DNA of 64,000 bases from an uncultured Lachnospiraceae bacterium (lineage in GTDB: Bacteria > Bacillota > Clostridia > Lachnospirales > Lachnospiraceae). This document shows positions 884-59,382 of the stretch, piece by piece. A program made the position numbers and the translations under genes. Each line of letters begins with the position of its first letter. Within the stretch, counting starts at the first letter, position 1. The stretch is taken from contig CAMONU010000006.1 of NCBI GenBank assembly GCA_946620695.1, forward strand, positions 17,479 through 81,478. Direction: 5' to 3'. A model generated the notes under the pieces. It made no database searches, was not told the origin of the DNA, and worked only from the letters and a program-made list of their open reading frames with translations.

Positions 884-939
884 CCGTTTCTTACGTACAG
901 GCACGACGAACCGGAACCTGATTTCAAACAGTCCGTGAA
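884..939 (-). mobile_element. Dispersed MITE/REP-like element, copy A (one arm plus core)
   Basis: Reverse complement reads TTCACGGACTGTTTGAAATCAGGTTCCGGTTCGTCGTGCCTGTACGTAAGAAACGG, matching the copies at 13633, 17516 and 59299. Confidence 0.8.
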
Positions 940-1141
940 GGCTGACAAAATGTTGATTATTGCGAATAATTGAGCAAGAATTATGCTTTTTTCCAACAAA
1001 GAAATGTGGTATATTATTAAAAAAGTCCGTCGTTTTAGACAATAGTATCGACGCTTTCCCGTCTTTATCCGGGAATCTGCAGAAACGGCGGAGACGCTGC
1101 AGGCAGTCGGAGCATATCTGTGAGGGAAAGGAGTGGAGGAT

Positions 1142-2095
1142 ATGGCTTCACCAAGAGCCAACAAGAACAAAGCTAAAAGCAGCATGAGTTTCGGGGCATA
1201 TATCCGCCGTTACTGGCAGCTCTATCTGCTGCTGCTTCTGCCTATGCTTTATCTGCTGATCTTTAAGTATATCCCCATGATTTACATTCAGATCGCATTT
1301 AAGAAGTACAGCATCGTACAAAGCGTATGGAAGATGCCTCTGGCGGCGAATCACGGCTTCCAGTATTTTATCCAGGCTTTCGCCGACCGGGATTTCCGCA
1401 ATGCCCTGCGCAACACGGTTGTCCTGAATCTTCTGGATCTTGTCATCGGTTTCCCGATCCCGATCATTTTCGCGATCGTCCTGAATGAACTTCCTTTCCA
1501 GAAATTTAAAAAATTTACCCAGACAGTGGCCTACATGCCGCATTTCCTGTCCTGGGTCATTATCTATGGACTGGCCCTGCAGCTTTTTGCACCCAGTACC
1601 GGTCTGATCAATGTGATCCTGAACAATATGGGCAGGGAGAGCGTTCCTTTCCTGAATGATTCCGCTCACTGGGTCGCGACTTATATTTTCCTGGGCGTGT
1701 GGCAGAGCTTCGGCTGGAACTCTATCGTATATCTGGCGGCCATCGCCGGCATCAACAAGGATCTCTATGAGGCCGCCGCTGTGGACGGGGCCGGGCGTTT
1801 CCAGAGAATCTGGCATATTACCCTTCCCGGCATCAAGCCTACGATCGTCATTCTGCTGATCATGGCGATCGGCAACATCGTCGGAAGCAATTTCGACCGT
1901 CCCTATGCGTTGCAGAACAACCTGGTTATGGACTGGGCAAACGTGATTGCCACCTATGTCTACAGGCGAGGCATCAAGGGACTGCAGTTCTCGCTGACGA
2001 CGGCGGTCGGCTTCTTCCAGTCTGTGGTCGGCGTATTTTTCCTGCTCGGCGCCAACTGGCTTTCCCGCAAGCTTGGCGAGCGCGGACTCTGGTAA
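1142..2095 (+). CDS. Carbohydrate ABC transporter permease (LplB/YteP-like)
   Basis: Multiple TM segments, EAA loop LYEAAAVDGAGRFQRIWHITLP; GGAGGA RBS before ATG 1142. Confidence 0.93.
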   Translation: MASPRANKNKAKSSMSFGAYIRRYWQLYLLLLLPMLYLLIFKYIPMIYIQIAFKKYSIVQSVWKMPLAANHGFQYFIQAFADRDFRNALRNTVVLNLLDLVIGFPIPIIFAIVLNELPFQKFKKFTQTVAYMPHFLSWVIIYGLALQLFAPSTGLINVILNNMGRESVPFLNDSAHWVATYIFLGVWQSFGWNSIVYLAAIAGINKDLYEAAAVDGAGRFQRIWHITLPGIKPTIVILLIMAIGNIVGSNFDRPYALQNNLVMDWANVIATYVYRRGIKGLQFSLTTAVGFFQSVVGVFFLLGANWLSRKLGERGLW

Positions 2096-2107
2096 GGGGG
2101 TGAGCTG

Positions 2108-2977
2108 ATGGGTACAGAAAAAAAATGGAGTATCGGCAATATTATTCTGGTGATCGTCTGCCTCCTGATCTGCGCAATCTGCCTGGTTCCCATGCTCAGC
2201 CTTCTGGCAAGGTCTTTAAGTTCTTCGGACGCGCTGGTCAAGCATGAGGTCTATCTGCTCCCCAAGGGGCTGAATTTCCAGGCTTACGCGCTGGTTCTGA
2301 AGGATGCGAAATATATCCGCGCATTCTTCTGGACCGTATTCCTGACCGTCGCGGAGACCCTGCTCTGCCTGTTCATGACGACGATCTGCGCGTATCCGCT
2401 CATCTTCAAGGAGCTGAAAGGGCGCAATGTATTCAATGTCATTATCACCATCACGATGTTCTTCAACGCGGGAACCATTCCCAATTATCTGCTGATGAAG
2501 AGCCTCGGACTTCTGGACAATCCGCTGGTTCTGCTTCTTCCGGGCGCCCTTTCGGTCTATAACATGATCATCATGCGGAGCTTCTTCTACGGGATCCCGG
2601 ATTCCCTCAGGGAGGCGGCCCAGATTGACGGAGCCAGCTATATCAAGATCCTGTGGACCATCTATGTGCCGCTGTCCAAGCCGGTTATGGCTACACTGGC
2701 CCTTTTCTACGCGGTGGGCCGCTGGAACGGCTACTACGATGCCCTGATGTACATTACCGACAATAAGTTTTACCCCCTGCAGCTGCTTCTGTACAACATC
2801 CTGAACAATATCAACAGTGTTGAAGTGGCGACGCAGGAAGGCTTCTCATCTCCGGGCCTGACAGAGTCGCTGAAGATGGCGATCGTCATGTTCTCGACGA
2901 TCCCGATCCTGTGCATTTACCCGTGGCTGCAGAAATACTTCATCCACGGCGTCATGGTCGGAGCGGTTAAGGAGTGA
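2108..2977 (+). CDS. Carbohydrate ABC transporter permease (LplC/YtcP-like)
   Basis: EAA loop LREAAQIDGAS, WNGYYDAL, YPWLQKYF motifs. Confidence 0.93.
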   Translation: MGTEKKWSIGNIILVIVCLLICAICLVPMLSLLARSLSSSDALVKHEVYLLPKGLNFQAYALVLKDAKYIRAFFWTVFLTVAETLLCLFMTTICAYPLIFKELKGRNVFNVIITITMFFNAGTIPNYLLMKSLGLLDNPLVLLLPGALSVYNMIIMRSFFYGIPDSLREAAQIDGASYIKILWTIYVPLSKPVMATLALFYAVGRWNGYYDALMYITDNKFYPLQLLLYNILNNINSVEVATQEGFSSPGLTESLKMAIVMFSTIPILCIYPWLQKYFIHGVMVGAVKE

Positions 2978-3066
2978 AGAATCATGAGTCATAACCCCTG
3001 CGGGGGAATTATGCGATAAAGAGCAGCAGCAAAAGGAACGAGATTCTATCAAGGAGGACGAAAGGT

Positions 3067-4686
3067 ATGAAAAAACAGCTTTTAGCGGCACTTTTTTCAG
3101 CAGCGCTTGCGGCGTCGGCATTTTCAGTATGCGCTCAGGCGGAGGAACTGACCGACGGAAAATTCGCGGAGACGAAGCACATTACCGTCGAAGTCTATGA
3201 CCGCGGAATTGACGGCGGATCTGATGTGACCAACAACATGTATACTGAGTATATCAAGAAGGGCATGCTTGAAGATCACAATGTGGAGGTTGAGTTTGTC
3301 GCTGTTCCCAGATGGACCGAGGTTGAACAGATCAACAACCTGCTGGCGGCGGGAAGTGCCCCGGATCTCTGCGTAACCTATGACCTGCCTACCATCAAGA
3401 CTTATTCCGCGATGGGCGGCGTCATCGACATGAGTGAAATGGTGGAGACTTACAGGGATGAGCTGCCGAATCTCTGGAACTGGCTGACCGAGACCAATAT
3501 CTACTGGGACAAGGATCCGGGAACCGGAGAGCTTTACGATATCGAGACCAAGCTCGCCAACCAGAACCGTACGAACTGCTTTGTCCGCAGAGACTGGCTG
3601 GATAAGCTGGGCATCGAAGCTCCGACCACAAGGGAAGAGTTCTACAACATGCTCTGCGCTTTCCGTGATAATGCGGAGACTCTGCTCGGCGATGACGCCG
3701 ACAAGATGATTCCTTTCTCCGTCAGCTATGACGTAGGCTGGAGAGCATCCACTCTGATCGAGTCCTTCCTGGATCCGGAGATGTCCGACAAGGAATTCTA
3801 TGTAAACGGCTTTGACGACAGAAAAACGACCCAGAATGGCGTGAGAGATGCCATCGAACTTCTGAATACCTGGTACAACGAAGGCCTTATGTGGAAAGAT
3901 TTCGCTCTTTACACCGCCGGCGATACCACAGAGGATGACATGATGAAAGCCGGCTATGTCGGCGCATTCATCCACAACTGGGATTATCCTTACAGAAACG
4001 GCGCGGATTCCATCCAGGCCAACCTTCAGAGACTGGTCGGTGAAGACGCCGCTTATGTGGCAATCGATCCGTTTGAGGACAAGAACGGAACCCATACAAA
4101 ATGGATCGCGGGACCGGTTGACAGAAAAGTATTCTTCCCGATCACCAACGAAGAGCCTCTGGCCTGCCTGCTTTACCTTGACTGGCTGAGCGTTCCGGAG
4201 CATCTGGAATATCTCCAGATCGGTGATGAGGGCGTGACCCATGAGAAGCTTGAGAACGGAGCAGTGAAGATCCTCGCCGCGACAGGCGACGCGATCCAGA
4301 ATTCCGGCTTCAATATCGACTATACGCTGACCTGCAACGGCCTGCATCTGGTCGATGACGAGCAGACCGCTCTGTCCATCGCTTACAGCTACGCGGAAGT
4401 GGATCCGGAGCTGGTTGAGATCGCGAATGCGGTGGCAAAGGTTGATACCCGCGAGGCCAAGAATGCGAACTGCGGAACCATCGAAGCGGAAAACGGCATG
4501 ACCGAGACCCTGAACAGCAAGAGAGACATCCTTCTGGATACCTCTGTCAGCGCGGCACCGGATGCTTTCGCGGCTACCTTCGACAATGCGATGGCGGATT
4601 ATCTCGGATCCGGCGGACAGGCGATCATGGACGAGCGTGCCCAGAAATGGGAGGCAACCTACGGCGATGCGGATATGCTTCCGTAA
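3067..4686 (+). CDS. Carbohydrate ABC transporter extracellular solute-binding protein
   Basis: Signal peptide, acidic 539-aa protein, RRDWLDKLGIEAPTTREEFYNML motif typical of LplA-type SBPs; follows two permeases. Confidence 0.9.
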   Translation: MKKQLLAALFSAALAASAFSVCAQAEELTDGKFAETKHITVEVYDRGIDGGSDVTNNMYTEYIKKGMLEDHNVEVEFVAVPRWTEVEQINNLLAAGSAPDLCVTYDLPTIKTYSAMGGVIDMSEMVETYRDELPNLWNWLTETNIYWDKDPGTGELYDIETKLANQNRTNCFVRRDWLDKLGIEAPTTREEFYNMLCAFRDNAETLLGDDADKMIPFSVSYDVGWRASTLIESFLDPEMSDKEFYVNGFDDRKTTQNGVRDAIELLNTWYNEGLMWKDFALYTAGDTTEDDMMKAGYVGAFIHNWDYPYRNGADSIQANLQRLVGEDAAYVAIDPFEDKNGTHTKWIAGPVDRKVFFPITNEEPLACLLYLDWLSVPEHLEYLQIGDEGVTHEKLENGAVKILAATGDAIQNSGFNIDYTLTCNGLHLVDDEQTALSIAYSYAEVDPELVEIANAVAKVDTREAKNANCGTIEAENGMTETLNSKRDILLDTSVSAAPDAFAATFDNAMADYLGSGGQAIMDERAQKWEATYGDADMLP

Positions 4687-4765
4687 GAATTCCGGAAACG
4701 GGGCTTCTGAACGATAACAGATCAGAGCTCTGATACAGCTCTGTGCCTGCTGTTCTTTTATGCAG

Positions 4766-4796
4766 AGGGGTCTGCGCCTGTGCGCAGACTCCTTTT
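4766..4796 (+). terminator. Intrinsic terminator after SBP gene
   Basis: AGGGGTCTGCGC / GCGCAGACTCCT stem followed by TTTT. Confidence 0.7.
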
Positions 4797-4800
4797 GTAC

Positions 4801-4900
4801 GTTTCATGTGTCTGTGTTTCCGTGTTTGCGTTTCTGTGTTCGGGTTTCCTGTGCTTGCGTCTCTGTGTTCGGGTTTTCTGTGTCCGCGTTTCCTGTGTCT
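4801..4900. repeat. GT-rich degenerate tandem repeat, ~29-bp period
   Basis: CTGTGTTCGGGTTT at 4834 and 4863, with further degenerate units on both sides. Confidence 0.7.
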
Positions 4901-4958
4901 GGCACAGTTTTTTTCCGGGCCGTTTCTTTTGTTGAAGCAGGCGGTTTTTTGATATAAA

Positions 4959-6860: not shown

Positions 6861-6881
6861 AAAATATGGGAGAGCAGAGTT

Positions 6882-7778: not shown

Positions 7779-7871
7779 AGCTTTTTCGGAGAATCGATTT
7801 TGCCGGGAGGGGAGAAGGGCTTCAGATCTTTCACGGTGTTTGAAAAAGTTTTTTTGGAAATGGCAGGAAAT

Positions 7872-13541: not shown

Positions 13542-13632
13542 ATCGGATCCTCCTCTTCCTTATTCCCGGCAATTATCCGATATTTTTCATCCGCTTACAA
13601 GTGGGAACATGTTTTTGCCCCTTCGTTACTCT

Positions 13633-13701
13633 ATTCATGGGCTGTTTGAAATCGGGTTCCGGTTCGTCGTGCCTGCAGGGGAAACAGGTTCTGATTTCAA
13701 A
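13633..13701 (+). mobile_element. Dispersed MITE/REP-like element, copy B (right arm truncated)
   Basis: ATTCATGGGCTGTTTGAAATCGGGTTCCGGTTCGTCGTGCCTGCAGGGGAAACAGGTTCTGATTTCAAA. Confidence 0.85.
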
Positions 13702-13986
13702 TTATATTTTCCGTCAGGAGAGGTCCTTGAAGGGAAGGCAGCGGACGGGACTGGCAGTCAGTTTCACGCAGATGCGGCTGCAGATGAACAGGCGGCAGCA
13801 GGAGGGGCAGATCTTCATGGACATTGCGGCGCTGCGATGCTAAAATATAAACGCTTTGCAGGTAATTCAATGGCCTGCCGGAACGGGCCCGCCGTGAGGA
13901 AGCCGGGTGCATGGGCGCATGGTTCATTCTATGGCCTGCTGGAGAGGGCAGACTGGAAAGATAAAGGATACGGAGGAAAGAAAAAC

Positions 13987-15464: not shown

Positions 15465-15479
15465 TAAGAAAAAGATACT

Positions 15480-15511
15480 GTTCACGGCCTGATCTGTTGA
15501 GGGCCGTGAAC
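15480..15511. mobile_element. Mini-hairpin made only of the two outer ends of the dispersed element
   Basis: GTTCACGGCC-12 nt-GGCCGTGAAC; both arms match the element terminus TTCACGGCC. Confidence 0.55.
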
Positions 15512-16075: not shown

Positions 16076-16110
16076 AGCTATTCTTACCCCCATAGCTGAT
16101 TATGATTACT

Positions 16111-16152
16111 ATTCACGGCCTGTTTGAAATCGGGTTCTGGTTCGTTGTGAAT
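16111..16152 (+). mobile_element. Dispersed MITE/REP-like element, copy C (internally shortened)
   Basis: ATTCACGGCCTGTTTGAAATCGGGTTCTGGTTCGTTGTGAAT. Confidence 0.8.
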
Positions 16153-16196
16153 AGTAATAACCCCTTATGTCGCTGCCTGCCCGGCAGTCCGCCGGA

Positions 16197-17471: not shown

Positions 17472-17500
17472 TTGACTTTTCATTTCTTTAATAATATTAT
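17472..17500 (+). promoter_or_regulatory. Sigma-A type promoter for the MBOAT operon
   Basis: TTGACT-17 bp-TATTAT. Confidence 0.6.
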
Positions 17501-17515
17501 ATCCGCGATGTTATG

Positions 17516-17596
17516 ATTCACAGCCTGTCTGAAATCAGGTTACGGTTTGCCGTGCCTGCGGGAGAAACAGCTTCTGATTTCAGAGAAGCCGTGAAT
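17516..17596 (+). mobile_element. Dispersed MITE/REP-like element, copy D (complete, 81 bp)
   Basis: Left arm ATTCACAGCCTGTCTGAAATCAG; right arm CTGATTTCAGAGAAGCCGTGAAT (23-bp imperfect inverted repeat); core GTTACGGTTTGCCGTGCCTGCGGGAGAAACAG. Confidence 0.85.
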
Positions 17597-17657
17597 CGTC
17601 ACTTTTCAGACCGACGGGACGGCGTTTCGGGCGCCGTTTTTTAAGAGGTTTATCAAT

Positions 17658-19076
17658 ATGGTATTCAGCAGCCTGCTGTTTCTGTTCCGCTTTTTACCGG
17701 CGGTGCTTTTCTTTTATTTTATCGTACCCCCAAGATTTCGGAATCTGGTTCTTCTGCTGGTCAGCCTGGTATTCTATGCCTGGGGCGAGCCGGTCTATGT
17801 GGTTCTGATGATCGTTTCGATCCTGATTTCATGGGGAGGAGGCCTTGCGGTCAGCAGCTTCCGGGCACAGGGCCGGGAGAGGGCGGCAAAGACCGCTCTG
17901 GTCCTGTCAGTCGGGGCAGGTCTCAGCCTTCTGGGATTCTTCAAATACGCGGACTTTCTGATCCGGACGGTGAATTCAGTGGCCGGGACAAAGATCTCGC
18001 TGCTGCATCTGACCCTGCCGATCGGGATCTCATTTTATACCTTCCAGACGATTTCCTATATTATCGACGTGTATCGGTCAGATGCCTCTGTCCAGAAAAA
18101 TGTAATATCCTACGGGGCCTATGTGACCATGTTTCCCCAGCTGATCGCCGGACCGATCGTCCAGTACCGGACCATCGACGCCCAGCTTCGCTCCAGGAAG
18201 GAGAGCATGGAGGAGTTTGCTCAGGGGATCAACCGCTTTATGATCGGCCTGGGCAAGAAGGTGCTCCTGGCCAACCAGGCGGGGGTGCTGTGGGATCAGA
18301 TCCGGGTTATGGATACGGGGAAAATGCCGGTCCTGACGGCCTGGATCGGGATCGCAGCCTACACCTTCCAGATCTATTTTGATTTTTCCGGCTATTCTGA
18401 CATGGCCATCGGACTTGGCCATATGTTCGGATTCCGCTTCCTGGAAAATTTTGATCATCCATATCTGGCTTCGAGCGCGACGGAATTCTGGCGCAGGTGG
18501 CACATCTCGCTGGGAACCTGGTTCCGGGAGTATGTCTACATTCCTCTTGGAGGAAACCGTGTAGGACGCGCGGGCCTGATCCGCAATACACTGGTGGTCT
18601 GGCTCCTGACAGGCATCTGGCACGGCGCGGACTGGAATTTCATGATCTGGGGCGTCTATTACGGGATTCTTCTGCTTCTGGAAAAGCTGGTCTACGGGAA
18701 ATACCTGCAGCGCCTGCCTTCATTCCTCCGGCATTTCTACGCGATGTTCGCGGTGATGATCGGCTGGTATATCTTCTCCTTCAATGAGATCAGCGGCGGC
18801 CTGGGATACCTGACGGCCATGTTCGGCAGCGGGGGAAGGCTTCTTTCCGGCGGCAGCATCTATCTGCTCTATTCCAACGGGATTCTTCTGGCAGCCCTGA
18901 TCCTCGGATCGACGGACCTGCCGCAGAGGATCGCGTCGGGGATTCTTGCAAGGGTACGGGAGAGCGACGCTGTTTCCATTCTCCTGCGCAGCCTCTTTTA
19001 TGCAGCGGTGTTCCTCCTCAGCACGGCCAGTCTGGTGGGGGCATCCTACAATCCGTTCCTGTATTTTCGTTTCTGA
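17658..19076 (+). CDS. MBOAT family O-acyltransferase (AlgI/PatA/DltB-like)
   Basis: MVFSSLLFLF, LPIGISFYTFQ, FPQLIAGPIV, FDFSGYSDMAIG, EFWRRWHISL, GIWHGA motifs. Confidence 0.93.
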   Translation: MVFSSLLFLFRFLPAVLFFYFIVPPRFRNLVLLLVSLVFYAWGEPVYVVLMIVSILISWGGGLAVSSFRAQGRERAAKTALVLSVGAGLSLLGFFKYADFLIRTVNSVAGTKISLLHLTLPIGISFYTFQTISYIIDVYRSDASVQKNVISYGAYVTMFPQLIAGPIVQYRTIDAQLRSRKESMEEFAQGINRFMIGLGKKVLLANQAGVLWDQIRVMDTGKMPVLTAWIGIAAYTFQIYFDFSGYSDMAIGLGHMFGFRFLENFDHPYLASSATEFWRRWHISLGTWFREYVYIPLGGNRVGRAGLIRNTLVVWLLTGIWHGADWNFMIWGVYYGILLLLEKLVYGKYLQRLPSFLRHFYAMFAVMIGWYIFSFNEISGGLGYLTAMFGSGGRLLSGGSIYLLYSNGILLAALILGSTDLPQRIASGILARVRESDAVSILLRSLFYAAVFLLSTASLVGASYNPFLYFRF

Positions 19077-19235
19077 GGAGGGCCGTGAATAACCACTCTG
19101 AGGAAATACGGATTCAATAGTCTGTGATTAATCGATTCCGGGCCGGCTGCCATGGGCGGCCGGCGCGCGGCAGCTTCAGCTGCGGGATTTCATTTTGGAC
19201 TGTGAATCCGGTTTTGCCTGAAAGGGAGGCTTTGT

Positions 19236-21495: not shown

Positions 21496-21999
21496 ATGAA
21501 AATGATCGCGGCAGTGGATGCCAGATGGGGAATCGGCAGGAAGAACCAGCTTCTCGTATCGATTCCGGCAGATATGAAAGCCTTCCGGGCGGCGACGACC
21601 GGACAGGTCATCGTGATGGGCAGGAAGACCCTGGAAAGTTTTCCGGGAGGAAAGCCTCTGAAGGGGCGCGTCAACCTGGTTCTGACCGGGGGCAGAAATT
21701 ACCGGGCGGAGGGGGCGACGGTCCTTCACAGCGTGGAGGATGTGCTGAAAGAACTGGAAAAATATCCGGACAGGGAAGCCTGGTGCATCGGGGGCGGAAG
21801 CATCTACAGACAGTTTCTCCCTTTTACAGATGAAGTGCACGTGACAAAGATCGAGCATGTCTACGAGGCGGATACCTTCTTTCCGGATCTGGACGCGGAT
21901 CCGGAATGGGAGATTACGGGAATCAGTGAAGAGCAGACTTATTTTGACCTCGTCTATCATTTTGTAAGATATGAACGCTGCCGTTCACGGGCAATTTGA
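21496..21999 (+). CDS. folA: Dihydrofolate reductase
   Basis: IAAVDARWGIG, IPADMKAF, VMGRKT, IGGGSIY, EADTFFP motifs; GGAGG RBS before ATG 21496. Confidence 0.95.
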   Translation: MKMIAAVDARWGIGRKNQLLVSIPADMKAFRAATTGQVIVMGRKTLESFPGGKPLKGRVNLVLTGGRNYRAEGATVLHSVEDVLKELEKYPDREAWCIGGGSIYRQFLPFTDEVHVTKIEHVYEADTFFPDLDADPEWEITGISEEQTYFDLVYHFVRYERCRSRAI

Positions 22000-22060
22000 A
22001 ATCAGGTTCTGATTCGTCGTATCTGCAGGTAAGAAGCGGGTTCTGATATCAGATATGAAC
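21983..22060 (+). mobile_element. Dispersed MITE/REP-like element, copy E, overlapping the folA stop codon
   Basis: GTTCACGGGCAATTTGAAATCAGGTTCTGATTCGTCGTATCTGCAGGTAAGAAGCGGGTTCTGATATCAGATATGAAC. Confidence 0.8.
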
Positions 22061-22101
22061 GGCGCCGGGAACGGCGCCGCTAAAGAAGGAGCAGACTGAC
22101 T

Positions 22102-28019: not shown

Positions 28020-28144
28020 GAAGAAGAAATATAGTATAGAGAAAAGATAGAAGAAGACAGAAGAGAAAAGACAGAAGAACAGAGCCAGAAGAGAAAAGTC
28101 AGAAGAATAGAGCAAGAAGAGAAAAGACAGAAGAGAAAATAAAG
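28020..28144 (+). repeat. Purine-rich degenerate tandem repeat (AGAAGAGAAAAGAC-like units)
   Basis: Several AGAAGAGAAAAG(A/T)CAGAAG units in the pgm-nucleoside hydrolase gap. Confidence 0.75.
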
Positions 28145-28159
28145 ATGGAGGACGGGCGG

Positions 28160-31952: not shown

Positions 31953-32000
31953 CCGCACAGGCATGACGGACCGGAAGCTGATCTGAGTCAGGCCGTGAAT
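31953..32000 (-). mobile_element. Dispersed MITE/REP-like element, copy G (diverged, one arm plus core)
   Basis: Reverse complement ATTCACGGCCTGACTCAGATCAGCTTCCGGTCCGTCATGCCTGTGCGG. Confidence 0.7.
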
Positions 32001-32035
32001 CGCAACTTTTATTTATAAAAAGCTGTATGCTTCTC

Positions 32036-37821: not shown

Positions 37822-38108
37822 AAGAAGTTCCTCCTCTTTTGATAATAGATGATTTGCCTGTCAGAACAGAATCTAATCTGATCTGACTCAATTTCAAAAT
37901 GGCCGAGAACAGTAACTGTTAAGTCCATAGTATAGTGAAAATGACTTTTTTGCAAGGACTTTGGCAAATACAGTTATGCATCATGCCTGAAAAAGCAGCC
38001 GGGAGCAAGGACCTTTTCCTTCCTGATCCATAGAATTTCTTCCCGCCGCGGGGCAGCTGCGGCAGCCGGATCTGCTTCTGAGGCCGGAAAGTCTTCCCTG
38101 TTTTTTTC

Positions 38109-42059: not shown

Positions 42060-42077
42060 GACGCGGAAAAAAGAGGG

Positions 42078-42168
42078 GCAGAAGCGAGGAAGAAAGGCCG
42101 AAGCGAAGAAGAGAGACCGAAGCGAAGAAGAGAGACAGCAGCGAAGAAGAAAGACAGAAACGAAGAAG
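42078..42168 (+). repeat. Tandem repeat, 19-bp unit, 5 copies
   Basis: GCGAAGAAGAGAGAC-like units recurring at 42084, 42103, 42122, 42141, 42160. Confidence 0.85.
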
Positions 42169-47297: not shown

Positions 47298-47427
47298 GCC
47301 CACGGCTGTGCATACTGCAGACGCGGCTGGGCCCACGGCTGTGTATATTGCAGACGCGGCTGGGCCCACGGCTGTGTATATTGCAGACGCGGCTGGGCTC
47401 ACGGCTGTGTATATTGCAGACGTGGCC
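47298..47427. repeat. Tandem repeat, 33-bp unit, 4 copies
   Basis: GCCCACGGCTGTGTATATTGCAGACGCGGCTGG at 47298, 47331, 47364, 47397. Confidence 0.92.
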
Positions 47428-48438: not shown

Positions 48439-48990
48439 ATGAGAGTGATAGCAGGGAAGGCGGGCAGCCTTCCGCTTCGTACTGTGACCGGCCTGAATAC
48501 AAGGCCGACGACAGACCGGATCAAGGAAACTTTATTTAATATGATCGCGGACCAGCTTCCAGGCGGCAGGTTTCTGGACCTGTTTGCCGGCTCCGGTGCG
48601 ATCGGGATCGAGGCACTCAGCAGGGGGGCGGCCGCGGCTGTATTTGTCGAGAATAACCGGCAGGCCTTGCGCTGCATCCATGAAAACCTGAATTTTACCC
48701 GTCTTGCGCCGCAGGGGCGTGTCCTGGCCGGGGATGTCATCCAGACAGTTCAGGATATGAACGGGGAGAAGCCGTTTACCATCATCTTCATGGATCCGCC
48801 CTATGACTGTGAACTGGAGAAAAGAGTCCTGGAAGCGCTTCAGGGCAGCACACTGGTCGATGAGAATACCGTGATTATCGTGGAAGCATCGAAGGATACC
48901 GATTTTTCCTATCTGCAGGAGCTGGGATTTCAGCCTGTAAGGGTGAAGGAATACAAGACCAACAAGCATGTTTTCCTGAAGAAAGTCTGA
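48439..48990 (+). CDS. rsmD: 16S rRNA m2G966 methyltransferase
   Basis: MRVIAG, RPTTDRIKE, LDLFAGSG, EALSRG, FMDPPY. Confidence 0.95.
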   Translation: MRVIAGKAGSLPLRTVTGLNTRPTTDRIKETLFNMIADQLPGGRFLDLFAGSGAIGIEALSRGAAAAVFVENNRQALRCIHENLNFTRLAPQGRVLAGDVIQTVQDMNGEKPFTIIFMDPPYDCELEKRVLEALQGSTLVDENTVIIVEASKDTDFSYLQELGFQPVRVKEYKTNKHVFLKKV

Positions 48991-49110
48991 TGCAGGACTG
49001 CCGGAGGATGTCATCCGGGATGAATCAGCTTTTCCTGAAGAAGCCTGATGCAGGACTGCCGGAGGCTGACATCCGGTATAAATCAGCATTTTCCTGAATA
49101 AAGCCTGAAG
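48971..49110 (+). repeat. Tandem repeat, 59-bp unit, ~2.4 copies, starting in the rsmD 3' end
   Basis: TTTTCCTGAAGAAAG(T/C)CTGATGCAGGACTGCCGGAGG... at 48971, 49030 and partial 49089. Confidence 0.9.
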
Positions 49111-49171: not shown

Positions 49172-49660
49172 ATGAAAAGAGCCGTTTATCCGGGCAGCTT
49201 TGATCCGGTAACTTATGGACATCTCGACATCATAGCGCGATCGGCCGAGATTATGGATGAACTGGTTGTCGGAGTCCTGATCAATCAGGCAAAAACACCA
49301 TTGTTTTCTGTAGAAGAACGTGTTAATATGTTACATATTCTGACGAAAAATCTCAGTAATGTCCGGATTGAATCATTCTCCGGACTTTCTGTCGATTTCG
49401 CCAGGGAAGCCGGGGCCGGTTTTATCGTTCGCGGGCTCCGTGCGATCACGGATTTTGATTATGAACTGCAGATGTCCCAGACCAACCGGATCATGGCACC
49501 GGAGATCGATACGATCTTTCTTACGACGAGCCTGCAGTACGCCTATCTGAGTTCCACCACCGTCAGGGAGGTGGCTTCCTATGGCGGTGATATTTCGAAT
49601 TTTGTTCCGCCTGAGGTGGAAAAGGCGGTGATGAAAAAGTTCGGCTTCAGCAGACCCTGA
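49172..49660 (+). CDS. coaD: Phosphopantetheine adenylyltransferase
   Basis: [35 protein letters not shown]. Confidence 0.97.
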
Positions 49661-49737
49661 GAGTGGAAGTATCGGACTTTGTTCCGCCCAAGGTGGAAAA
49701 GGCGGTAATGAAAAAGTTCGGCTTCGACAGACCCTGA
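49601..49737 (+). repeat. Duplication of the last 60 bp of coaD (77-bp period)
   Basis: TTTGTTCCGCC...GGTGGAAAAGGCGGT(G/A)ATGAAAAAGTTCGGCTTC...GACCCTGA at 49601 and 49678. Confidence 0.92.
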
Positions 49738-49954
49738 CAGGGCAGTTCTTCCTTCTGCCGGTATTCAGACCGGCGTCAGGCGGACAGGCCGGGCGATTCA
49801 TTTTGTATGTATACCCGCGGGCGATTGTGGCTTTCGCATACCGGTATGTACCGCGGTATATATACCTGCACAGCGCAGGATTAAGGGGAGAGCAAGTAGT
49901 TAAGCAGGGTGGCTGTCCGGGGGAGCGGACAGAAGAGTGAGGAGAGTGTGAGTT

Positions 49955-50680: not shown

Positions 50681-51547
50681 ATGGCACAGGTGAGGCTGGA
50701 CCGTTTTCTGGCGGAGGAAGGCGTCGGAACGAGGTCGGAAGTGAAAAAACTGATCCGTTCCGGACGTGTCCGGGTCAACGGGGCCGATGTCCGGCAGCCG
50801 GACTGCAAGCTTGATCCGGAGAAGGACAGCGTCGAGGCAGATGGAAAGAAGATCGGACAGACAGGATTTCTTTACCTGATGATGAACAAGCCCGGCGGGG
50901 TTCTGAGCGCTACCAGGGACGGACGCACGCAGACCGTGATCAATCTGGTAAAAGAGTCCTGGGCGGATAAGCTTTTTCCCGCGGGCAGGCTGGACAAGGA
51001 CACGGAAGGCTTTGTCCTGCTGACCAACGACGGGATGCTTGCCCACAGACTCCTGTCCCCCCGAAGGCATGTATCCAAGACTTATTTTGCGATTGTGAGC
51101 GGTTTTGTGACCGAGGATGACGTCCGCCTGTTCCGGGAAGGCCTGGAGATCGGGGAGAAGCGGAAGACGCTCCCTGCCCAGCTGGTCCGGCTGACGGTTG
51201 ACGGGGATTTTCTTGAAGAAAAGATCCACCATCCTGGCGTACAGGAAGTTAAAAATCCCGACGCGCCGCTGCTTGTGAGCAGGGCTCAGATGCAGGAATT
51301 CTGTATGCGGGGCATCGCCCTGTCGGACTATGCCCGCTGCGGGGAAGGGGAATGCTGCGTGGCCGTAGCGGTCACGGAAGGTAAATTCCACCAGATCAAG
51401 CGCATGTTTGAGGCAGTGGGACGTGAGGTCCGTTTCCTCAAGAGGATCGCGATCGGGACAGTGTGCCTGGACAGAAGCCTCGGGAGCGGGCAGTACCGGC
51501 CCTTAACGGAGGAGGAACTGAACCTTCTCAGGAATACGGAAGCATAA
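50681..51547 (+). CDS. RsuA-family rRNA pseudouridine synthase with S4 domain
   Basis: RLDRFL, NKPGG, AGRLDKDTEG, EGKFHQIKRM; GGAGG RBS before ATG 50681. Confidence 0.92.
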   Translation: MAQVRLDRFLAEEGVGTRSEVKKLIRSGRVRVNGADVRQPDCKLDPEKDSVEADGKKIGQTGFLYLMMNKPGGVLSATRDGRTQTVINLVKESWADKLFPAGRLDKDTEGFVLLTNDGMLAHRLLSPRRHVSKTYFAIVSGFVTEDDVRLFREGLEIGEKRKTLPAQLVRLTVDGDFLEEKIHHPGVQEVKNPDAPLLVSRAQMQEFCMRGIALSDYARCGEGECCVAVAVTEGKFHQIKRMFEAVGREVRFLKRIAIGTVCLDRSLGSGQYRPLTEEELNLLRNTEA

Positions 51548-51643
51548 TAGATGCGGCAGCATAATGGGTCTGGCGGCATAATGGATCCGGCAGCAAGATG
51601 GGTCCGGCGGCATAATGAATCCGGAAGCATAATGGGTCCGGCA
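51542..51643 (+). repeat. Tandem repeat, 17-bp unit, 6 copies, first unit containing the upstream stop codon
   Basis: GCATAATGGGTCCGGCA-like units at 51542, 51559, 51576, 51593, 51610, 51627. Confidence 0.9.
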
Positions 51644-51671
51644 GACAGGCGGCGAAGGGAGCATACAGCGG

Positions 51672-52316: not shown

Positions 52317-52387
52317 AAACAGAGCGCGGCCGGACCGGACGAAGTCACGGCGCGCGGTGCAGTCTGTAAGCCCACAGGGGGATTCTG

Positions 52388-54466: not shown

Positions 54467-54483
54467 GCGCAGAGAGGTTGCGA

Positions 54484-55101
54484 ATGGAGAAAAAGAAACA
54501 CCCTGGAAAAGGGGAATACGGATATTACGCCTACGAGAAAAAGAAGCGCATCGGCATCGTATGCCTGCTGTTCGGTATCTGCCTGGGAATCTACATCACG
54601 GGTCTCATCATGACGCATACGAACAAGAACATGTTCTCTCTGGTTGCGATCCTGGGCGTGCTTCCGGCTGCAAAATGGGCGACCGAGATGATCATGATCC
54701 TGCTGCAGAAGAGCACAGATCCGGAGGTCTATGAGATTACGGAGAAGATCGCCGGCGATCTGACGCACGGCTATGAGCTGTGCGTTACGGCCTATGAGGG
54801 CAGGATGCCCCTTGACGCTGTAGTGATCTGCGGCAATTTTGTCGTATGCTATTCCAGCGCCGAGAAGGGGAAATTTGAGTTTATGGAGACCCATATGCGA
54901 AAAATTTTCCACGGCAACGGCCTCGGCAATCCTACTGTGAAGATTTTCCGCAGACTTGACCAGTATAAAGAGCGGATCAGCCAGCTGGCCGCTGACCCTG
55001 AAAAGTATCGCGAAGGGCTGAAATATACGCCGGATGAACAGCATGCGGGAGAAAGCCGCGAGGAAGCCCTTCTGAGGCTGATCTGCAACATCTCCCTCTG
55101 A
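54484..55101 (+). CDS. Hypothetical membrane protein (two N-terminal TM helices)
   Basis: KGEYGY, hydrophobic stretches, LPAAK; clean ORF in operon orientation. Confidence 0.7.
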   Translation: MEKKKHPGKGEYGYYAYEKKKRIGIVCLLFGICLGIYITGLIMTHTNKNMFSLVAILGVLPAAKWATEMIMILLQKSTDPEVYEITEKIAGDLTHGYELCVTAYEGRMPLDAVVICGNFVVCYSSAEKGKFEFMETHMRKIFHGNGLGNPTVKIFRRLDQYKERISQLAADPEKYREGLKYTPDEQHAGESREEALLRLICNISL

Positions 55102-55138
55102 AAAGCCCGAAGCCCGGAAGCGGCGTCGCCTGTGTGTG

Positions 55139-55265
55139 AAGGCCGCGAGTGTTATGACCGGGCTGCCGTGGCCCGGCGTGCCGCAGTGCTGCTCGTAAAG
55201 GCTGCGAGTGCTATTATCGGGCTGCCGGGACATACCGTACCGCGGCGCCCGTGCGCAAAGGCCAG
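55139..55265 (+). repeat. Degenerate tandem repeat, ~59-60-bp period
   Basis: AAGGC(C/T)GCGAGTG...CGGGCTGCCG at 55139 and 55198, partial third copy at 55258. Confidence 0.7.
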
Positions 55266-55325
55266 GAACTGGTTTAAGCCGGGCTTTCAAAGCTGCGTTT
55301 TTTAACAGAAAGGACATCTCATTCA

Positions 55326-56387
55326 ATGAGAGAACTGGAAGTTACTTCCCTGCAGGCGGGACAGCGTCTGGACAGGCTGCTTGGCAAATATCTGAAAGAG
55401 GCTTCCGGACCCTTCCTTCACAAGATGCTGCGGAAGAAGAATATCACCCTGAACGGCCGCCGGGCGGACGGCAGTGAGAAGGTGGCAGAAGGGGATCTGA
55501 TCCGGATTTTCTTCGCGGAAGAAACCCTGGAAAAGTTCACGGGAAGCGGTCCGAAAGGGGAGGCAGGCAAAAAAGACCTTCTCGAACGCTATCCTTCGAC
55601 TGTTCTTGATATTCTGTATGAAGATGAAAATATTCTGCTGGTGAATAAACCTGCCGGCATGCTGACGCAGAAAGCCAGTGATGAGGATATTTCCCTGAAT
55701 GAGTACGCCATCGGCTATCTGCTGCGCTCCGGCGCCCTGTCGGAGGAGGACCTGCTTTCTTTCCGGCCTTCGGTCTGCAACCGTCTTGACCGCAATACCA
55801 GCGGTATCGTGGCGGTGGGAAAGTCCGTCGCAGGCCTGCAGGAGCTTTCAAAGATGTTTCATGACAGGACGGTTCACAAGTATTACCGGACGATCGTTCT
55901 CGGACATATTGAAAAAAGCCGGACCATAGAGGGCTACCTGAAAAAGGACCAGGACGAAAACAGGGTCCTGATCCTGAAGGAACCGGCACCCGAAGCCCAG
56001 CTGATCCGTACCGGCTATACGCCCCTCGGATGGGCTTCAGACGGCAATCCGGGCCATGACCTGACGATGCTGGAGATTGAACTGATCACCGGGCGCAGCC
56101 ATCAGATCAGGGCGCACCTGAGCTCGGCCGGGCATGCGGTGGCGGGGGATCCCAAATACGGGAGCCAGAAGCGGAATGATTATTTCAGGAGAGAGTACCA
56201 GGTGCGCAGACAGCTGCTGCATGCGGACCACATTACATTTCCCGCAGGAGACGGCTGCCTCGGACATCTGTCCGGCAGGACCTTCACAGCGCCTCTTCCG
56301 GATGATTTTCAGCGCGTGGTGAAGGGAGAAAAGATCCGGGAGAGGAAGGACCTCAGCCCGGGATACAGCGTCGGGGAGACTGAGTGA
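55326..56387 (+). CDS. RluA/RluD-family pseudouridine synthase
   Basis: GQRLDR, NKPAGM, NRLDRNTSG, TGRSHQIRAHL, GDPKYG. Confidence 0.93.
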   Translation: MRELEVTSLQAGQRLDRLLGKYLKEASGPFLHKMLRKKNITLNGRRADGSEKVAEGDLIRIFFAEETLEKFTGSGPKGEAGKKDLLERYPSTVLDILYEDENILLVNKPAGMLTQKASDEDISLNEYAIGYLLRSGALSEEDLLSFRPSVCNRLDRNTSGIVAVGKSVAGLQELSKMFHDRTVHKYYRTIVLGHIEKSRTIEGYLKKDQDENRVLILKEPAPEAQLIRTGYTPLGWASDGNPGHDLTMLEIELITGRSHQIRAHLSSAGHAVAGDPKYGSQKRNDYFRREYQVRRQLLHADHITFPAGDGCLGHLSGRTFTAPLPDDFQRVVKGEKIRERKDLSPGYSVGETE

Positions 56388-56394
56388 GAATCGT

Positions 56395-56943
56395 ATGGCG
56401 ACATGGAATTCAAGGGGCCTGAGAGGAAGTACCCTGGAGGATCTGATCAACCGCACAAATGAACAGTACCGGGAGAAAAAACTGGCCCTGATCCAGAAAA
56501 TTCCGACCCCGATCACCCCCATCGATATTGATAAGGAGAGCAGGCATATCACGCTGGCTTACTTTGACCAGAAGAGTACGGTGGATTATATCGGAGCCGT
56601 ACAGGGCGTTCCGGTATGCTTTGACGCGAAGGAAAGCAAGAGCGATACCTTCAGCCTGCAGAACGTTCATGAGCATCAGGTCGCATTTATGCGGGAATTT
56701 GAACGGCAGATGGGACTTGCTTTCCTGCTGATCTTTTATTCGCACAGGGATGAATTCTACTATATGCCCTTCACGGATCTGGAAAGATTCTGGAGGCGGG
56801 CGCAGGAGGGGGGCCGCAAGTCGGTCCGATTCGAGGAGATCGATACGCAGCTCCGGATCTGGCCCAACCGCCACGGAATTCTGCTTCCCTATCTGGACGC
56901 TGTCGCGATGGACCTGGAGCGGCACGACTGGGCGCAGGCCTGA
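56395..56943 (+). CDS. recU: Holliday junction resolvase RecU
   Basis: RGSTLE, KIPTP, STVDYIG, FDAKE, HEHQ. Confidence 0.93.
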   Translation: MATWNSRGLRGSTLEDLINRTNEQYREKKLALIQKIPTPITPIDIDKESRHITLAYFDQKSTVDYIGAVQGVPVCFDAKESKSDTFSLQNVHEHQVAFMREFERQMGLAFLLIFYSHRDEFYYMPFTDLERFWRRAQEGGRKSVRFEEIDTQLRIWPNRHGILLPYLDAVAMDLERHDWAQA

Positions 56944-56951
56944 GCTCCTAC

Positions 56952-56980
56952 TTGACAGAGCCGCGGAATGTGCGTAAGAT
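56952..56980 (+). promoter_or_regulatory. Sigma-A type promoter of the his operon
   Basis: TTGACA-17 bp-TAAGAT. Confidence 0.65.
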
Positions 56981-57002
56981 AACGAGATAGCTGATTTAAT
57001 GA

Positions 57003-57016
57003 TTTAGCACGCTAAA
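57003..57016. promoter_or_regulatory. Palindromic operator, HisR-box-like
   Basis: TTTAGC-AC-GCTAAA just downstream of the promoter; resembles the TTTA-N6-TAAA core of Firmicute HisR sites (from memory). Confidence 0.5.
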
Positions 57017-57068
57017 GCATACAGAAACATCTGAAGCATGCAAAAATATCTAAAGCATACAAAAGTAT
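57012..57068 (+). repeat. Tandem repeat, 19-bp unit, 3 copies, in the hisZ leader
   Basis: CTAAAGCATACAGAAACAT / CTGAAGCATGCAAAAATAT / CTAAAGCATACAAAAGTAT. Confidence 0.8.
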
Positions 57069-57092
57069 CTTAGAAACGGGGAACATTCATAT

Positions 57093-58304
57093 ATGAATCA
57101 GAAGATTCTTCATACACCGGAAGGACTCCGCGACATCTATTCCGATGAGTGCGAAAGAAAACAGATCCTGGAGCAGAGGCTGCATCAGGTTCCTGCTTCC
57201 TACGGATACAGGGATATCGAGACGCCCTCCATCGAATTTTTTGATGTATTCGGGTCCGATATCGGGACTATTCCCTCCCGAGATCTTTTTAAGTTTTTTG
57301 ACAGAGAAGGAAATACGCTGGTTCTGCGTCCGGACTTCACGCCGTCGATCGCAAGAGCCGCCAGCCGCTATTTTCAGAATGTGAATCATCCGATCCGCCT
57401 GTGCTATATAGGGAAAAGTTTTGTAAATTACTCCGGCCTGCAGGGAAGACTGAAGGAGAATACACAGATGGGAGCCGAGCTGATCGGCGCCTCCGGCGCA
57501 GACGCGGATGCCGAGGTCATCGCCATGGCGACGGAGACCATGCTGGCCGCGGGACTGGGGGAATTCCAGATCAGCGTCGGACACGTTGCTTTCTTTGAGA
57601 GCCTGGCGGAGGAAGCCGGATTTGATGAAGACACCGTTTTAAGACTCCGGAATCTGATCCATAACCGCAATACCTTCGGCGTTGAAAAGCTGCTGAGCAG
57701 CCTGGAAGAAGAGAGGAAAAGCGCGTCACAGCCTCTGGATGAGCGGATCCGCAGGCTTCTGATCGCTCTTCCCACTCTTACCGGAGGCGAAGAGTTGCTG
57801 GAAAAAGCATTCTCCATGTCGGAGGGACTGAAAGCTCAGGAAGCGGTGGTCCGCCTGAAGAAAGTTCTGGAGCTTCTGAAGCTTTACGGCCTTGAGCGCT
57901 ATACTTCCTTCGATCTGGGGATGCTGTCCGTGTATATGTACTATACAGGGATTATTTTCCGCGGATATACGTACGGGACCGGGGAAGCCGTGGTAAAAGG
58001 CGGACGCTATGACGCCCTGCTGAAGCATTTCGGCAAAGACCTGCCCTCCATCGGCTTTGTAGTCGTCATCGGACAGCTGCTGAATGCTTTGCAGCGTCAG
58101 AAGATCGAGATCCTTCCTGCGCATGAGCGTTACCTGATCCTGTATAGAGAAGAAGCGGCGAAGGAAGCCGTGAGCAGGGCTGCCGCCTGGCGAAGACAGG
58201 GAAAATATACAGAACTGATGCTGCTTGCCTCTGAGAAGGACATTGAGAAGAGCGATGAGGAATACCGCCGCGAGGGCGGATATGCGGGCGTAATCCGTCT
58301 GTAA
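57093..58304 (+). CDS. hisZ: ATP phosphoribosyltransferase regulatory subunit
   Basis: TPEGLRD, LRPDFTPSIAR, QMGAELIG, YYTGIIF, GGRYD. Confidence 0.95.
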   Translation: MNQKILHTPEGLRDIYSDECERKQILEQRLHQVPASYGYRDIETPSIEFFDVFGSDIGTIPSRDLFKFFDREGNTLVLRPDFTPSIARAASRYFQNVNHPIRLCYIGKSFVNYSGLQGRLKENTQMGAELIGASGADADAEVIAMATETMLAAGLGEFQISVGHVAFFESLAEEAGFDEDTVLRLRNLIHNRNTFGVEKLLSSLEEERKSASQPLDERIRRLLIALPTLTGGEELLEKAFSMSEGLKAQEAVVRLKKVLELLKLYGLERYTSFDLGMLSVYMYYTGIIFRGYTYGTGEAVVKGGRYDALLKHFGKDLPSIGFVVVIGQLLNALQRQKIEILPAHERYLILYREEAAKEAVSRAAAWRRQGKYTELMLLASEKDIEKSDEEYRREGGYAGVIRL

Positions 58305-58411
58305 GAAGGGCATACGCGGGCGTAATCCGCCTGTAAGAAGGGCATATGCGGGCGTAATCCGCCTGTAAGAAAGGCATACGCAGACGCAATCTGTCTGTAA
58401 GAAGGGCATAC
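58284..58411 (+). repeat. Tandem repeat, 32-bp unit, 4 copies, first unit containing the hisZ stop
   Basis: GCGGGCGTAATCCG(T/C)CTGTAAGAAGGGCATAC at 58284, 58316, 58348, 58380. Confidence 0.93.
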
Positions 58412-58590
58412 GCCGCTGCCGCCAGCGTTCTTGAGCATCGCGGCAGGGAAAGACATATATTTACCCACGGCTGCGCATCCATCCGAAGCCATTGAGTCAA
58501 AGTGCGATCCATCGTTTCGGAAGGAGGTATCCGAGGCTGTTAGTCAGAGTGCAATATGCCGTTTCGGGAGAAGTAAGGGAAGAAAATCTT

Positions 58591-59235
58591 ATGAGATATC
58601 TCACCATAGCCCTGACAAAGGGCAGGCTAGCGAAGCAGACGATGCAGCTTCTGGAGAAGATCGGTATCTCCTGCGAGGAGATGACGGATCCGGATACCAG
58701 AAAGCTGATCTTTGTAAATGAAGAACTGAAGCTCAGATTTTTCCTGGCCAAGGGGCCGGATGTCCCGACCTATGTGGAGTACGGGGCGGCGGATATCGGC
58801 GTGGTCGGGGAAGACACGATCATGGAGGAAGGACGGAAGATCTATGAAGTCCTTGATCTGGGCTTCGGGAAATGCCGGATGTGCGTCGCCGGCCCCGAGG
58901 AGGCGGGAGCTCTCCTGAACGGTCAGGAGCAGATCCGGGTGGCGACAAAGTACCCGAAGATCGCGAGAGATTATTTTACGGAGCGGAAAAACCAGACTGT
59001 GGAGATCATCAAGCTGAACGGTTCCATCGAGCTTGCACCGATTGTCGGCCTGGCCGAAGTGATCGTTGATATCGTGGAGACCGGATCCACTTTGAAGGAG
59101 AACGGCCTGAAGGTGCTGGAGGAGGTCTGCCCCCTTTCGGCCAGAGTGGTGGTGAATCCGGTCAGCATGCGGATGGAAAATGCCCGCATTACAAAACTTC
59201 TGGATGACATGAACCGGGTACTTATGCAGATATAA
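58591..59235 (+). CDS. hisG: ATP phosphoribosyltransferase, short form
   Basis: IALTKGRL, DVPTYVEYG, ATKYP, IVDIVETG; start ATG 58591. Confidence 0.96.
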   Translation: MRYLTIALTKGRLAKQTMQLLEKIGISCEEMTDPDTRKLIFVNEELKLRFFLAKGPDVPTYVEYGAADIGVVGEDTIMEEGRKIYEVLDLGFGKCRMCVAGPEEAGALLNGQEQIRVATKYPKIARDYFTERKNQTVEIIKLNGSIELAPIVGLAEVIVDIVETGSTLKENGLKVLEEVCPLSARVVVNPVSMRMENARITKLLDDMNRVLMQI

Positions 59236-59298
59236 GAGCACGGAGACGGTGCTGCAGTTTGTTTTGGACAATCCATATTCTGCCTGAAACTGGTTACT

Positions 59299-59382
59299 AT
59301 TCATGGTCATTTTGAAATCAGGTTCTCGTTCGTCGTGCTTGCACGTAAGAAAAAGGTTCTGATTTCAAATAAGGCCTGCGAA
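59299..59382 (+). mobile_element. Dispersed MITE/REP-like element, copy F (near complete)
   Basis: ATTCATGGTCATTTTGAAATCAGGTTCTCGTTCGTCGTGCTTGCACGTAAGAAAAAGGTTCTGATTTCAAATAAGGCCTGCGAA. Confidence 0.85.

Follow-up and report, generated by a model that had tools for sequence, protein, structure and literature searches.

Among the described systems closest to the repeat studied here, insertion sequences (ISs) of the IS66 family usually have ends that begin with GTAA, and the mobile insertion cassettes (MICs) of Bacillus cereus consist of IS ends around passenger genes. Here we analyzed a window of 64 kb from an uncultured Lachnospiraceae bacterium (C6:17479-81478 of draft genome G000, which comprises 3.0 Mb in 128 contigs at 54% G+C). 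In this window, a reading made from the sequence alone (the sequence-only reading) had pointed out an abundant dispersed element of about 80 bp with 23-bp terminal inverted repeats (TIRs). It is highly probable that this repeat is a mobile miniature inverted-repeat transposable element (MITE) of gut and rumen Lachnospiraceae, with IS66-type ends and an interior that carries a conserved fold related to the Clostridiales-1 motif. G, C and L numbers are our handles for genomes, contigs and loci.

Rfam has listed Clostridiales-1 (RF01699) since 2010 as a frequent 'sRNA' (small RNA) of the gut without function, and metagenome studies continue to score it among the regulatory RNAs. The motif was described as an RNA, and its ends, duplications and mobility were not mentioned (Weinberg et al., 2010; PMC2864571). 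As recently as 2026, a preprint treated it as a regulatory RNA.

The repeat unit and its copies in the genome

Profile matches and the alignment of two-ended copies showed that most copies in the genome run further to the right than the element of about 80 bp. The true ends are GTTACTATTCACGGCC on the left and GGCCGTGAATAGTAAC on the right, with a TIR of 16 nt and 8-bp target duplications outside it. The aligned two-ended copies open on the left with GTTACTATTCACGGCC and continue with P2, a long hairpin whose tip reads GTCGTGC(T/C)TGCA. Next come the mini-hairpin CCTGCGAAGCAGG and a stem with branches (CTCCACACACAGCC...GGCCTGATGTGTGGAG), in which an extra hairpin of 50 nt is present or absent, and GGCCGTGAATAGTAAC closes the element on the right. 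The MITE is modular, and the unit of about 80 bp corresponds to its left hairpin module; the 23-bp arms ascribed to this unit are the inner part of the TIR plus the base of the internal hairpin.

A profile built from four window copies gave 176 raw and 132 non-overlapping matches in the G000 draft. In all, the draft contained 134 non-overlapping elements, amounting to 15.7 kb or 0.5% of its length, and 262 ends within 3 mismatches of the TIR; the guess of hundreds of copies genome-wide was about right. Close pairs of ends fell into size classes of 28, 44 (n = 5), 56, 62, 67, 76, 84, 93-96, 99-160, 192-195 (n = 12) and 244-247 bp (n = 8), the main classes being about 95, 195 and 245 bp. Elements of 44-247 bp were non-coding and held no open reading frame (ORF). 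The mean pairwise identity of the long copies was 90%, or 92% without one divergent copy. Truncated and internally deleted copies were numerous, and 11 ends ran off their contigs.

In some MITE copies of G000 (C14:1-210, C17:33880-34005, C13:1-180), the 32-nt hairpin tip (GATTCGTCGTGCCTGCRGGAGAAACAG...) was amplified in tandem two to six times, which may reflect the same slippage process as in other tandem arrays.

Evidence for transposition

Direct repeats of 8 bp lay just outside the ends of many copies. Among the 46 close pairs of ends in G000, 10 had a perfect duplication, 15 matched at 7 or more of the 8 positions and 23 at 6 or more, compared with 0.1% (at least 7/8) and 1.2% (at least 6/8) of mismatched flank pairs used as the control. 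Perfect duplications were found in every size class. They were also found in other genera, where 14 of 36 two-ended elements had a duplication of 8/8. Because copies of every size class carry duplications, anything between two ends can be moved.

Empty sites were sought by joining the flanks of ten perfect insertions and searching them against the genus. The closest species, G011, had a single unduplicated AAATAAAG at the site orthologous to the insertion at C43:5654-5749 of G000, and a single unduplicated AGATCAGC at the site orthologous to C57:6908-6963. A third target, CATCTTTC, was occupied by a 244-bp copy in G000 (C4:105059-105302) and by a copy of about 100 bp in the opposite orientation in G011 (L182, G011:C16:60550-61450). 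This result suggests that the site was used repeatedly, by independent insertions.

A REP/REPIN or IS200/IS605-type (PATE) element, inserting beside a TTAC-like target by means of a tyrosine (HUH) transposase, would fit the conserved TTACT at the 5' side and the hairpin-rich, intergenic character of the family, and the sequence-only reading had offered a REP-like family as an alternative. However, the TTACT, which had been read as part of a TTACT(CT) 5' flank, lies within the true TIR, not in the target site, and is found at both ends. HUH transposition makes no direct duplications, whereas those of 8 bp flank this element, and the cognate element encodes a DDE transposase, as described below. 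REP/REPIN elements require a RAYT (HUH) gene and leave no duplication of the target; the REP-like reading was rejected on these grounds, although no search aimed at a RAYT gene was made, and we give this type of explanation almost no weight.

The family thus combines TIRs, a duplication of fixed length, a small non-coding multi-copy form, empty sites, and an autonomous element that shares its ends and its 8-bp duplication, which are the features by which a MITE is recognized. The other view in the sequence-only reading, a non-autonomous mobile element, is borne out by these data.

Divergent IS66-family insertion sequences as the source of the ends

Sequence comparison showed that the 12-14 terminal bases and the 8-bp duplication are common to the MITE and to ISs of 2.0-2.4 kb, whose single large ORF encodes a divergent IS66-family DDE transposase without tnpA or tnpB. 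A search of end-rich genomes with PF03050 gave weak IS66 matches, among which two loci had MITE-like ends: an IS of 2267 bp in G400 (C45) with GTTACTGTTCAGGGGGCGGGG at both ends, and one of 2238 bp in G088 (C233) with GTTACAGTTCAGAC at both ends. The transposases of these two ISs, encoded by open frames of 550 and 572 amino acids, share 50% identity and carry DUF6444 and DDE_Tnp_IS66. The match to Pfam DDE_Tnp_IS66 (PF03050) was 69-83 bits against a cut-off of 23, and that to NCBIfam NF033517 (IS66) covered positions 1-384 of 387 at 127-162 bits, below the equivalog cut-off of 180 bits.

Metagenome contigs scanned with the transposase alignment gave 46 loci. Both ends were found in 20 copies of 2.22-2.36 kb (18 full-length metagenome loci plus those of G400 and G088), all of which end in GTTAC[TA]GT[TA]CA. 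Perfect 8-bp duplications were present at four independent IS insertions, including L237, whose right end is GTTACTATTCACGCC. In the window's own genus, a 2.0-kb IS in G002 (C7:126-2123) is bounded by GTTACTATTCACAGTC on either side and flanked by the duplication TTCGAGCC; it encodes an orfA of 129 amino acids and an IS66-like ORF of 445 amino acids. No tnpB-type gene or domain was found in these ISs, and the small coiled-coil orfA upstream has no Pfam family. Beyond the ends, the interiors of the IS and the MITE share nothing. The ends begin with GTTAC in the window family, GTAAC in a sister type (type B) and GTAAGCG in the canonical IS66 of the same genomes.

These comparisons support a derivation of the non-autonomous MITE family from a divergent clade within the IS66 family. 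The ends belong to this clade, not to an IS5/IS1182-like partner as proposed in the sequence-only reading. Several observations weigh against this assignment. Only about one quarter of the IS copies keep the target duplication. The G002 transposase is short, and only the C-terminal part of the DDE profile was matched in its 445 amino acids; this protein may be defective. No homologue of the cognate transposase was found in the MITE-rich G000, G011 and G016, metagenome-assembled genomes in which absence from the bin and true loss are inseparable. G222, G202 and G287 have MITEs but gave no PF03050 match. Finally, the element ends start with GTTAC, not with the GTAA typical of IS66.

If the assignment holds, an IS66-type transposase supplied in trans would bind the element ends, cut the target with an 8-bp stagger and insert the element. 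Because the G000 assembly holds no cognate transposase, its copies would be either stranded or served by an unbinned gene.

Other candidate sources were tried and rejected. In G000, TIR pairs up to 5 kb apart enclosed ordinary genes (pheA-like, epimerase, aldo-keto reductase) instead of a transposase, and solo ends adjoined mnmA, leuS, recA, metK and similar genes. Likewise, no transposase lay within TIR pairs separated by 1-3 kb in G011, Dorea acetigenes, G055, G202 and G222. The large TIR pairs among the pattern loci lacked a target duplication; the genes between them encode an aldehyde dehydrogenase, a Big_2 protein and PDDEXK_2. A canonical IS66 of G000 (C114:1268-3712), cut short by the end of its contig, has tnpA-like and tnpB-like genes and a tnpC of 547 amino acids. 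Canonical IS66 was discarded as a partner because the ends of its relatives in G011 and Dorea, GTAAGCG..., bear no relation to those of the MITE. IS256 was represented only by a pseudogene or partial copy with no matching ends, and ISL3 was absent from G000, G011, G041 and G043.

Spread of the ends and their cargo across Lachnospiraceae

The degenerate end GTWACYATTCASRG was scanned, together with a control, through one genome from each of 400 Lachnospiraceae genera. The ends were clearly above the control in about 35 of the 400 genera, with up to 298 exact ends in one genome of 2.8 Mb. The isolate Dorea acetigenes Sanger_03 carries six copies of 195 bp. By BLAST, the family itself was abundant in G000, G011 and G016 and sparse or absent in the other 17 species of the genus; the element was absent from 21 genomes of other genera and had no match in the plasmid and phage collections.

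The same ends enclosed a variety of other interiors. A unit of 3528 bp in G218 (L188, C1:524066-527593) has MITE ends, is flanked by CTCGCAAC as a perfect duplication of 8 bp, and contains pdxT, pdxS and a gene for a MocR/PdxR-type regulator (pdxR), without a transposase; from its gene content, this unit is a putative mobile cassette for vitamin B6 synthesis. G182 has a one-gene unit of 840 bp with the same TIRs and a perfect 8-bp duplication. In G299, two copies of a near-perfect palindromic foldback of 744 bp (L189, C14:259381-260124; L190, C17:58018-58761) share these ends and are flanked by the duplications AAAAATGA (8/8) and AACTTTCT/AACTTTCC (7/8). G222 harbors a MITE of about 145 bp with the same ends, an unrelated interior and a perfect duplication. 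At least 12 of the 36 ends in this otherwise complete genome lie 40-95 nt from a contig edge (C9, C10, C17, C21, C22, C24, C63, C78, C118, C129, C135), and the MITE seems to be a major cause of the breaks in its assembly.

Conserved fold of the interior and its relation to Clostridiales-1

The 244-nt form had a minimum free energy of -112 kcal/mol with a z-score of -8.4. The predicted fold, on the strand that reads GUCGUGCUUGCACGUAAG, has four stems: a closing stem formed by the inner TIRs (P1), the long hairpin P2 with a CUUG-tetraloop tip, a GCGAAGC mini-hairpin (P3) and a branched stem (P4). The tip is a CGUG-CUUG-CACG hairpin, and GNRA-like loops cap several of the sub-helices in other genera. 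We aligned 20 elements from more than 10 taxa to examine covariation. Among the 50 consensus pairs, 35 showed compensatory double changes across genera. G-U pairs outnumbered A-C pairs by 48 to 15, a count that leans towards the strand used for structure prediction. As an independent test, the folding energy was compared with that of the reverse complement, and it was lower in 17 of the 20 cross-genus copies and in all 20 copies from G000. By these models, the predicted fold is conserved and strand-specific.

In a permissive Rfam scan, a long G000 copy matched the full RF01699 model (positions 1-166) at 32 bits (E 2e-4), and copies from two other genomes scored 32.6 and 36.8 bits; all three are below the gathering threshold of 48 bits, at which no match was found in the window. 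The four-stem architecture and the conserved GCUUGC apical loop of RF01699 are present, and bona fide copies carry an identical 18-nt tip. The sequence-only reading had asked for comparison with known Rfam families, and the outcome is a sub-threshold relative of RF01699, not an exact member.

The 18-nt tip GTCGTGCTTGCACGTAAG occurred in more than 117 stretches of a species-level genome collection, nearly all from labelled Lachnospiraceae genera and the rest under broad labels such as 'Clostridia bacterium'. It always sits atop a hairpin, the stem of which differs between taxa. Bona fide RF01699 is itself multi-copy in the window's genus and in the family (G002, 17; G003, 15; G022, 44), some copies lying in tandem, and it is most abundant where the window MITE family is absent, giving a complementary distribution within the genus. 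The single bona fide match in G000 (C37:23787-23906, 72 bits) has a shortened long hairpin. Classic RF01699 copies in G022 are flanked by AT-rich 5-bp duplications, which were perfect in 4 of 8 copies compared with 3.6% in the control.

These full-length sub-threshold matches, together with the strong covariation, would also be expected if the family were a set of immobile paralogous small-RNA genes related to Clostridiales-1, with the inverted ends forming the closing helix of the RNA. The 8-bp duplications far above control and the empty orthologous sites speak against such genes. So do the identical ends around transposase-bearing ISs and protein-coding cargo, the many truncated or deleted copies and the patchy copy number within one genus. 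Immobile RNA genes are therefore very improbable, and the mobile MITE with a conserved fold is preferred.

Possible role of the fold

Whether the fold is a putative passenger RNA module, with its conserved tip recognized by a factor common to Lachnospiraceae, or a mere by-product of transposition seems to us about evenly balanced. A wider form of the first reading, in which the Clostridiales-1-type fold is a functional structured RNA or a protein-binding module, defined by the invariant tip GUCGUGCUUGCACGUAAG, that spreads on at least two unrelated transposon chassis, with the same tip also present at putative stand-alone, promoter-driven loci, is put forward tentatively, at somewhat less than an even chance. 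If true, it would describe an RNA gene that multiplies via borrowed transposon ends, those of the IS66-type MITE (8 bp) and those of the classic RF01699 elements (5 bp).

Two results count against an RNA function. Orientation relative to the flanking genes was unbiased (44 same and 47 opposite at 3' ends; 25 and 29 in tandem spacers), and no promoter or terminator consensus was found inside the element.

The fold may instead have no RNA function and be kept for DNA mobility as a single strand or cruciform, for example in joining the ends, or be palindromic through intrastrand repair. Consistent with this, P1 is formed by the inner TIR halves themselves, the element has no promoter of its own and no orientation bias relative to host transcription, and a selfish non-coding element is expected to keep only traits that help its propagation. 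GCGAAGC is, moreover, known as an unusually stable DNA mini-hairpin. On the other hand, the 145-bp MITE of G222, the 3.5-kb pdxST cassette and the 744-bp foldback have unrelated interiors between the same ends. Because such elements carry perfect duplications, the fold is not needed for mobilization as such. The same 18-nt tip is also found on elements with different ends and a 5-bp duplication, as well as behind promoter-like sequences, and the fold is strand-specific, unlike a cruciform. We regard a role confined to DNA as unlikely, slightly more so than the spreading RNA or protein-binding module.

In Hungatella and other Lachnospiraceae (L048, L052, L053, L056, L130, L158, L159), inspection by eye found the same tip behind an extended -10-like TGGTATAATG. 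The layout of these loci is ...GCAATGAGCAGTGCGAAA-hairpin-CATAGGGCGAAGCCCG..., followed by tandem repeats. From this arrangement, they look like stand-alone, transcribed loci.

Copies in the window

By profile hidden Markov model (HMM) and sequence inspection, copies were found at or near all the places named in the sequence-only reading but one, and most of them are truncated pieces of the larger unit (Table 1). The exception is a supposed decayed copy at 19111-19208, which gave no HMM match; a right-end remnant lies at 19075-19096 instead. A mini form reported from 15480 was present, with its start corrected to 15474. A search for repeats in the window recovered the element as families D3 and D10. 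The directional core, described as conserved in the same reading, matched its pattern three times within 3 mismatches where none was expected by chance. The copies are all intergenic. As also described there, they lie in both orientations, and no transposase is encoded in the 64 kb. Both ends are kept only at 17510-17602 (93 bp) and 16105-16157 (53 bp); the other copies are truncated.

Table 1. Copies and remnants of the MITE in the window.
Position	Strand	Feature	HMM match	Remark
883..945	-	Truncated copy: degenerate left TIR, P2 5' arm and tip; right part missing	939-883, E 1.5e-12	Between ORFs 492-779 (-) and 1133-2095 (+)
13625..13704	+	Left TIR with 2-nt insertion (GTTACTCTATTCATGG) and complete P2; truncated after P2	13631-13704, E 9e-17	
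15474..15511	+	Mini form: left TIR GATACTGTTCACGGCC, 12-nt remnant of outer P4 strand, degenerate right TIR	Yes	Same class as 44-bp forms elsewhere in the genome
16105..16157	+	Two-ended 53-bp internal-deletion form: ATTACTATTCACGGCC, P2 5' arm, GTGAATAGTAAT	16106-16157	No recognizable target duplication
17510..17602	+	Complete 93-bp short form: TIRs GTTATGATTCACAGCC and GTGACGATTCACGGCT, P2 hairpin	17511-17592	Target duplication decayed (2/8)
19075..19096	+	Solo right-end remnant GAGGAGGGCCGTGAATAACCAC	Yes	Overlaps stop codon of ORF 17658-19076
21977..22065	+	Diverged copy: degenerate left TIR (GCTGCCGTTCACGG) and P2, without right module	21983-22065, E 5.5e-17	
31954..32006	-	Truncated, diverged copy: left TIR GTTGCGATTCACGGCC and P2 5' arm	31954-32005, E 2.6e-5	TIR end at 32006
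37886..37916	-	Solo left end GTTACTGTTCTCGGCC and 15 nt of P2	Yes	Absent from the sequence-only reading
59293..59386	+	Best window copy: left TIR GTTACTATTCATGGTC, complete P2 with tip GTCGTGCTTGCACGTAAG, P3 mini-hairpin CCTGCGAAGCAG	HMM positions 1-94, E 2e-25	Stops before P4 and right TIR

A promoter-like site of the host at 17472-17517 (TTGACT-17-TATTAT; TTAATA-18-TATGAT, the -10 of the latter overlapping the left TIR) reads into the 93-bp copy and onward to the gene at 17658. This copy probably lies in a 5' untranslated region.

Many short tandem arrays also occur in the window, in spacers and where genes end; their periods are 14, 17, 19, 32-33, 58 and 77 bp (294-434, 28040-28151, 42068-42164, 47298-47426, 48983-49091, 49595-49740, 51537-51659 and 58280-58439).

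Discussion

The family is new and an unusual variant: an IS66-type MITE whose interior has a fold that is conserved, specific to one strand and akin to an orphan motif of Rfam. The sequence-only reading did not recognize it as a named family, in agreement with our literature search, which found no paper in the library searched on these TIR strings or on MITEs of Lachnospiraceae. The window family, and apparently also the classic Clostridiales-1 motif, are transposon-borne repeats, which bears on the interpretation of matches to them: the number of copies tracks transposition, not regulation. The puzzle that this sets is why a non-coding mobile element, in different genera and with different transposase systems, keeps a fold specific to one strand and an 18-nt tip that does not vary. 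In practical terms, a family that makes up about 0.5% of a genome breaks short-read assemblies, and its ends, together with the candidate transposase, are a possible genetic tool for the Lachnospiraceae, in which manipulation is difficult.

Like the Correia (CREE/NEMIS) elements of Neisseria and the RUP/BOX elements of Streptococcus, the window family is short, non-coding, bounded by TIRs and abundant in intergenic regions, forms stable hairpins, and has long and short forms that arise by internal deletion. Those elements have TA duplications and ties to IS families other than IS66, in contrast to the window family with its 8-bp duplication and its link to IS66. We know of no Correia, RUP or BOX element with a fold kept by covariation across many genera. 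The MICs of B. cereus resemble the pdxT-pdxS-pdxR unit of G218 and the one-gene unit of G182, whereas the window copies have no protein-coding cargo.

Clostridiales-1 (RF01699; Weinberg et al., 2010, PMC2864571) and the window element have in common four stems in the same helix order, the apical CGUCGUGCUUGCACGUAAG on the long hairpin, covariation and a multi-copy distribution in gut Lachnospiraceae. They differ in that the window element scores 32-37 bits against a threshold of 48, and in the size and sequence of P3 and P4. The RF01699 copies also have other ends (TGATTAC.../TGAGCC...) and apparently an AT-rich duplication of 5 bp, in contrast to the 8 bp of the window element.

Among IS66 elements, the cognate IS is most like the single-transposase members (ISBst12-like), with which it shares the 8-bp duplication, ends starting with GT, the DDE_Tnp_IS66 domain and a full-length match to NF033517. 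Because tnpA and tnpB are absent and orfA has no Pfam family, the organization of the 2.0-2.4-kb IS is ISBst12-like, a likeness judged from gene content. It differs from typical IS66 in a transposase that falls below the equivalog level (127-162 compared with 180 bits) and is preceded by the small coiled-coil orfA, and from canonical IS66, with GTAAGCG ends, in the GTTAC(T/A)(G/A)TTCA shared by the cognate IS and the MITE. The window element itself is a non-coding derivative that has only its ends in common with an IS66-type IS.

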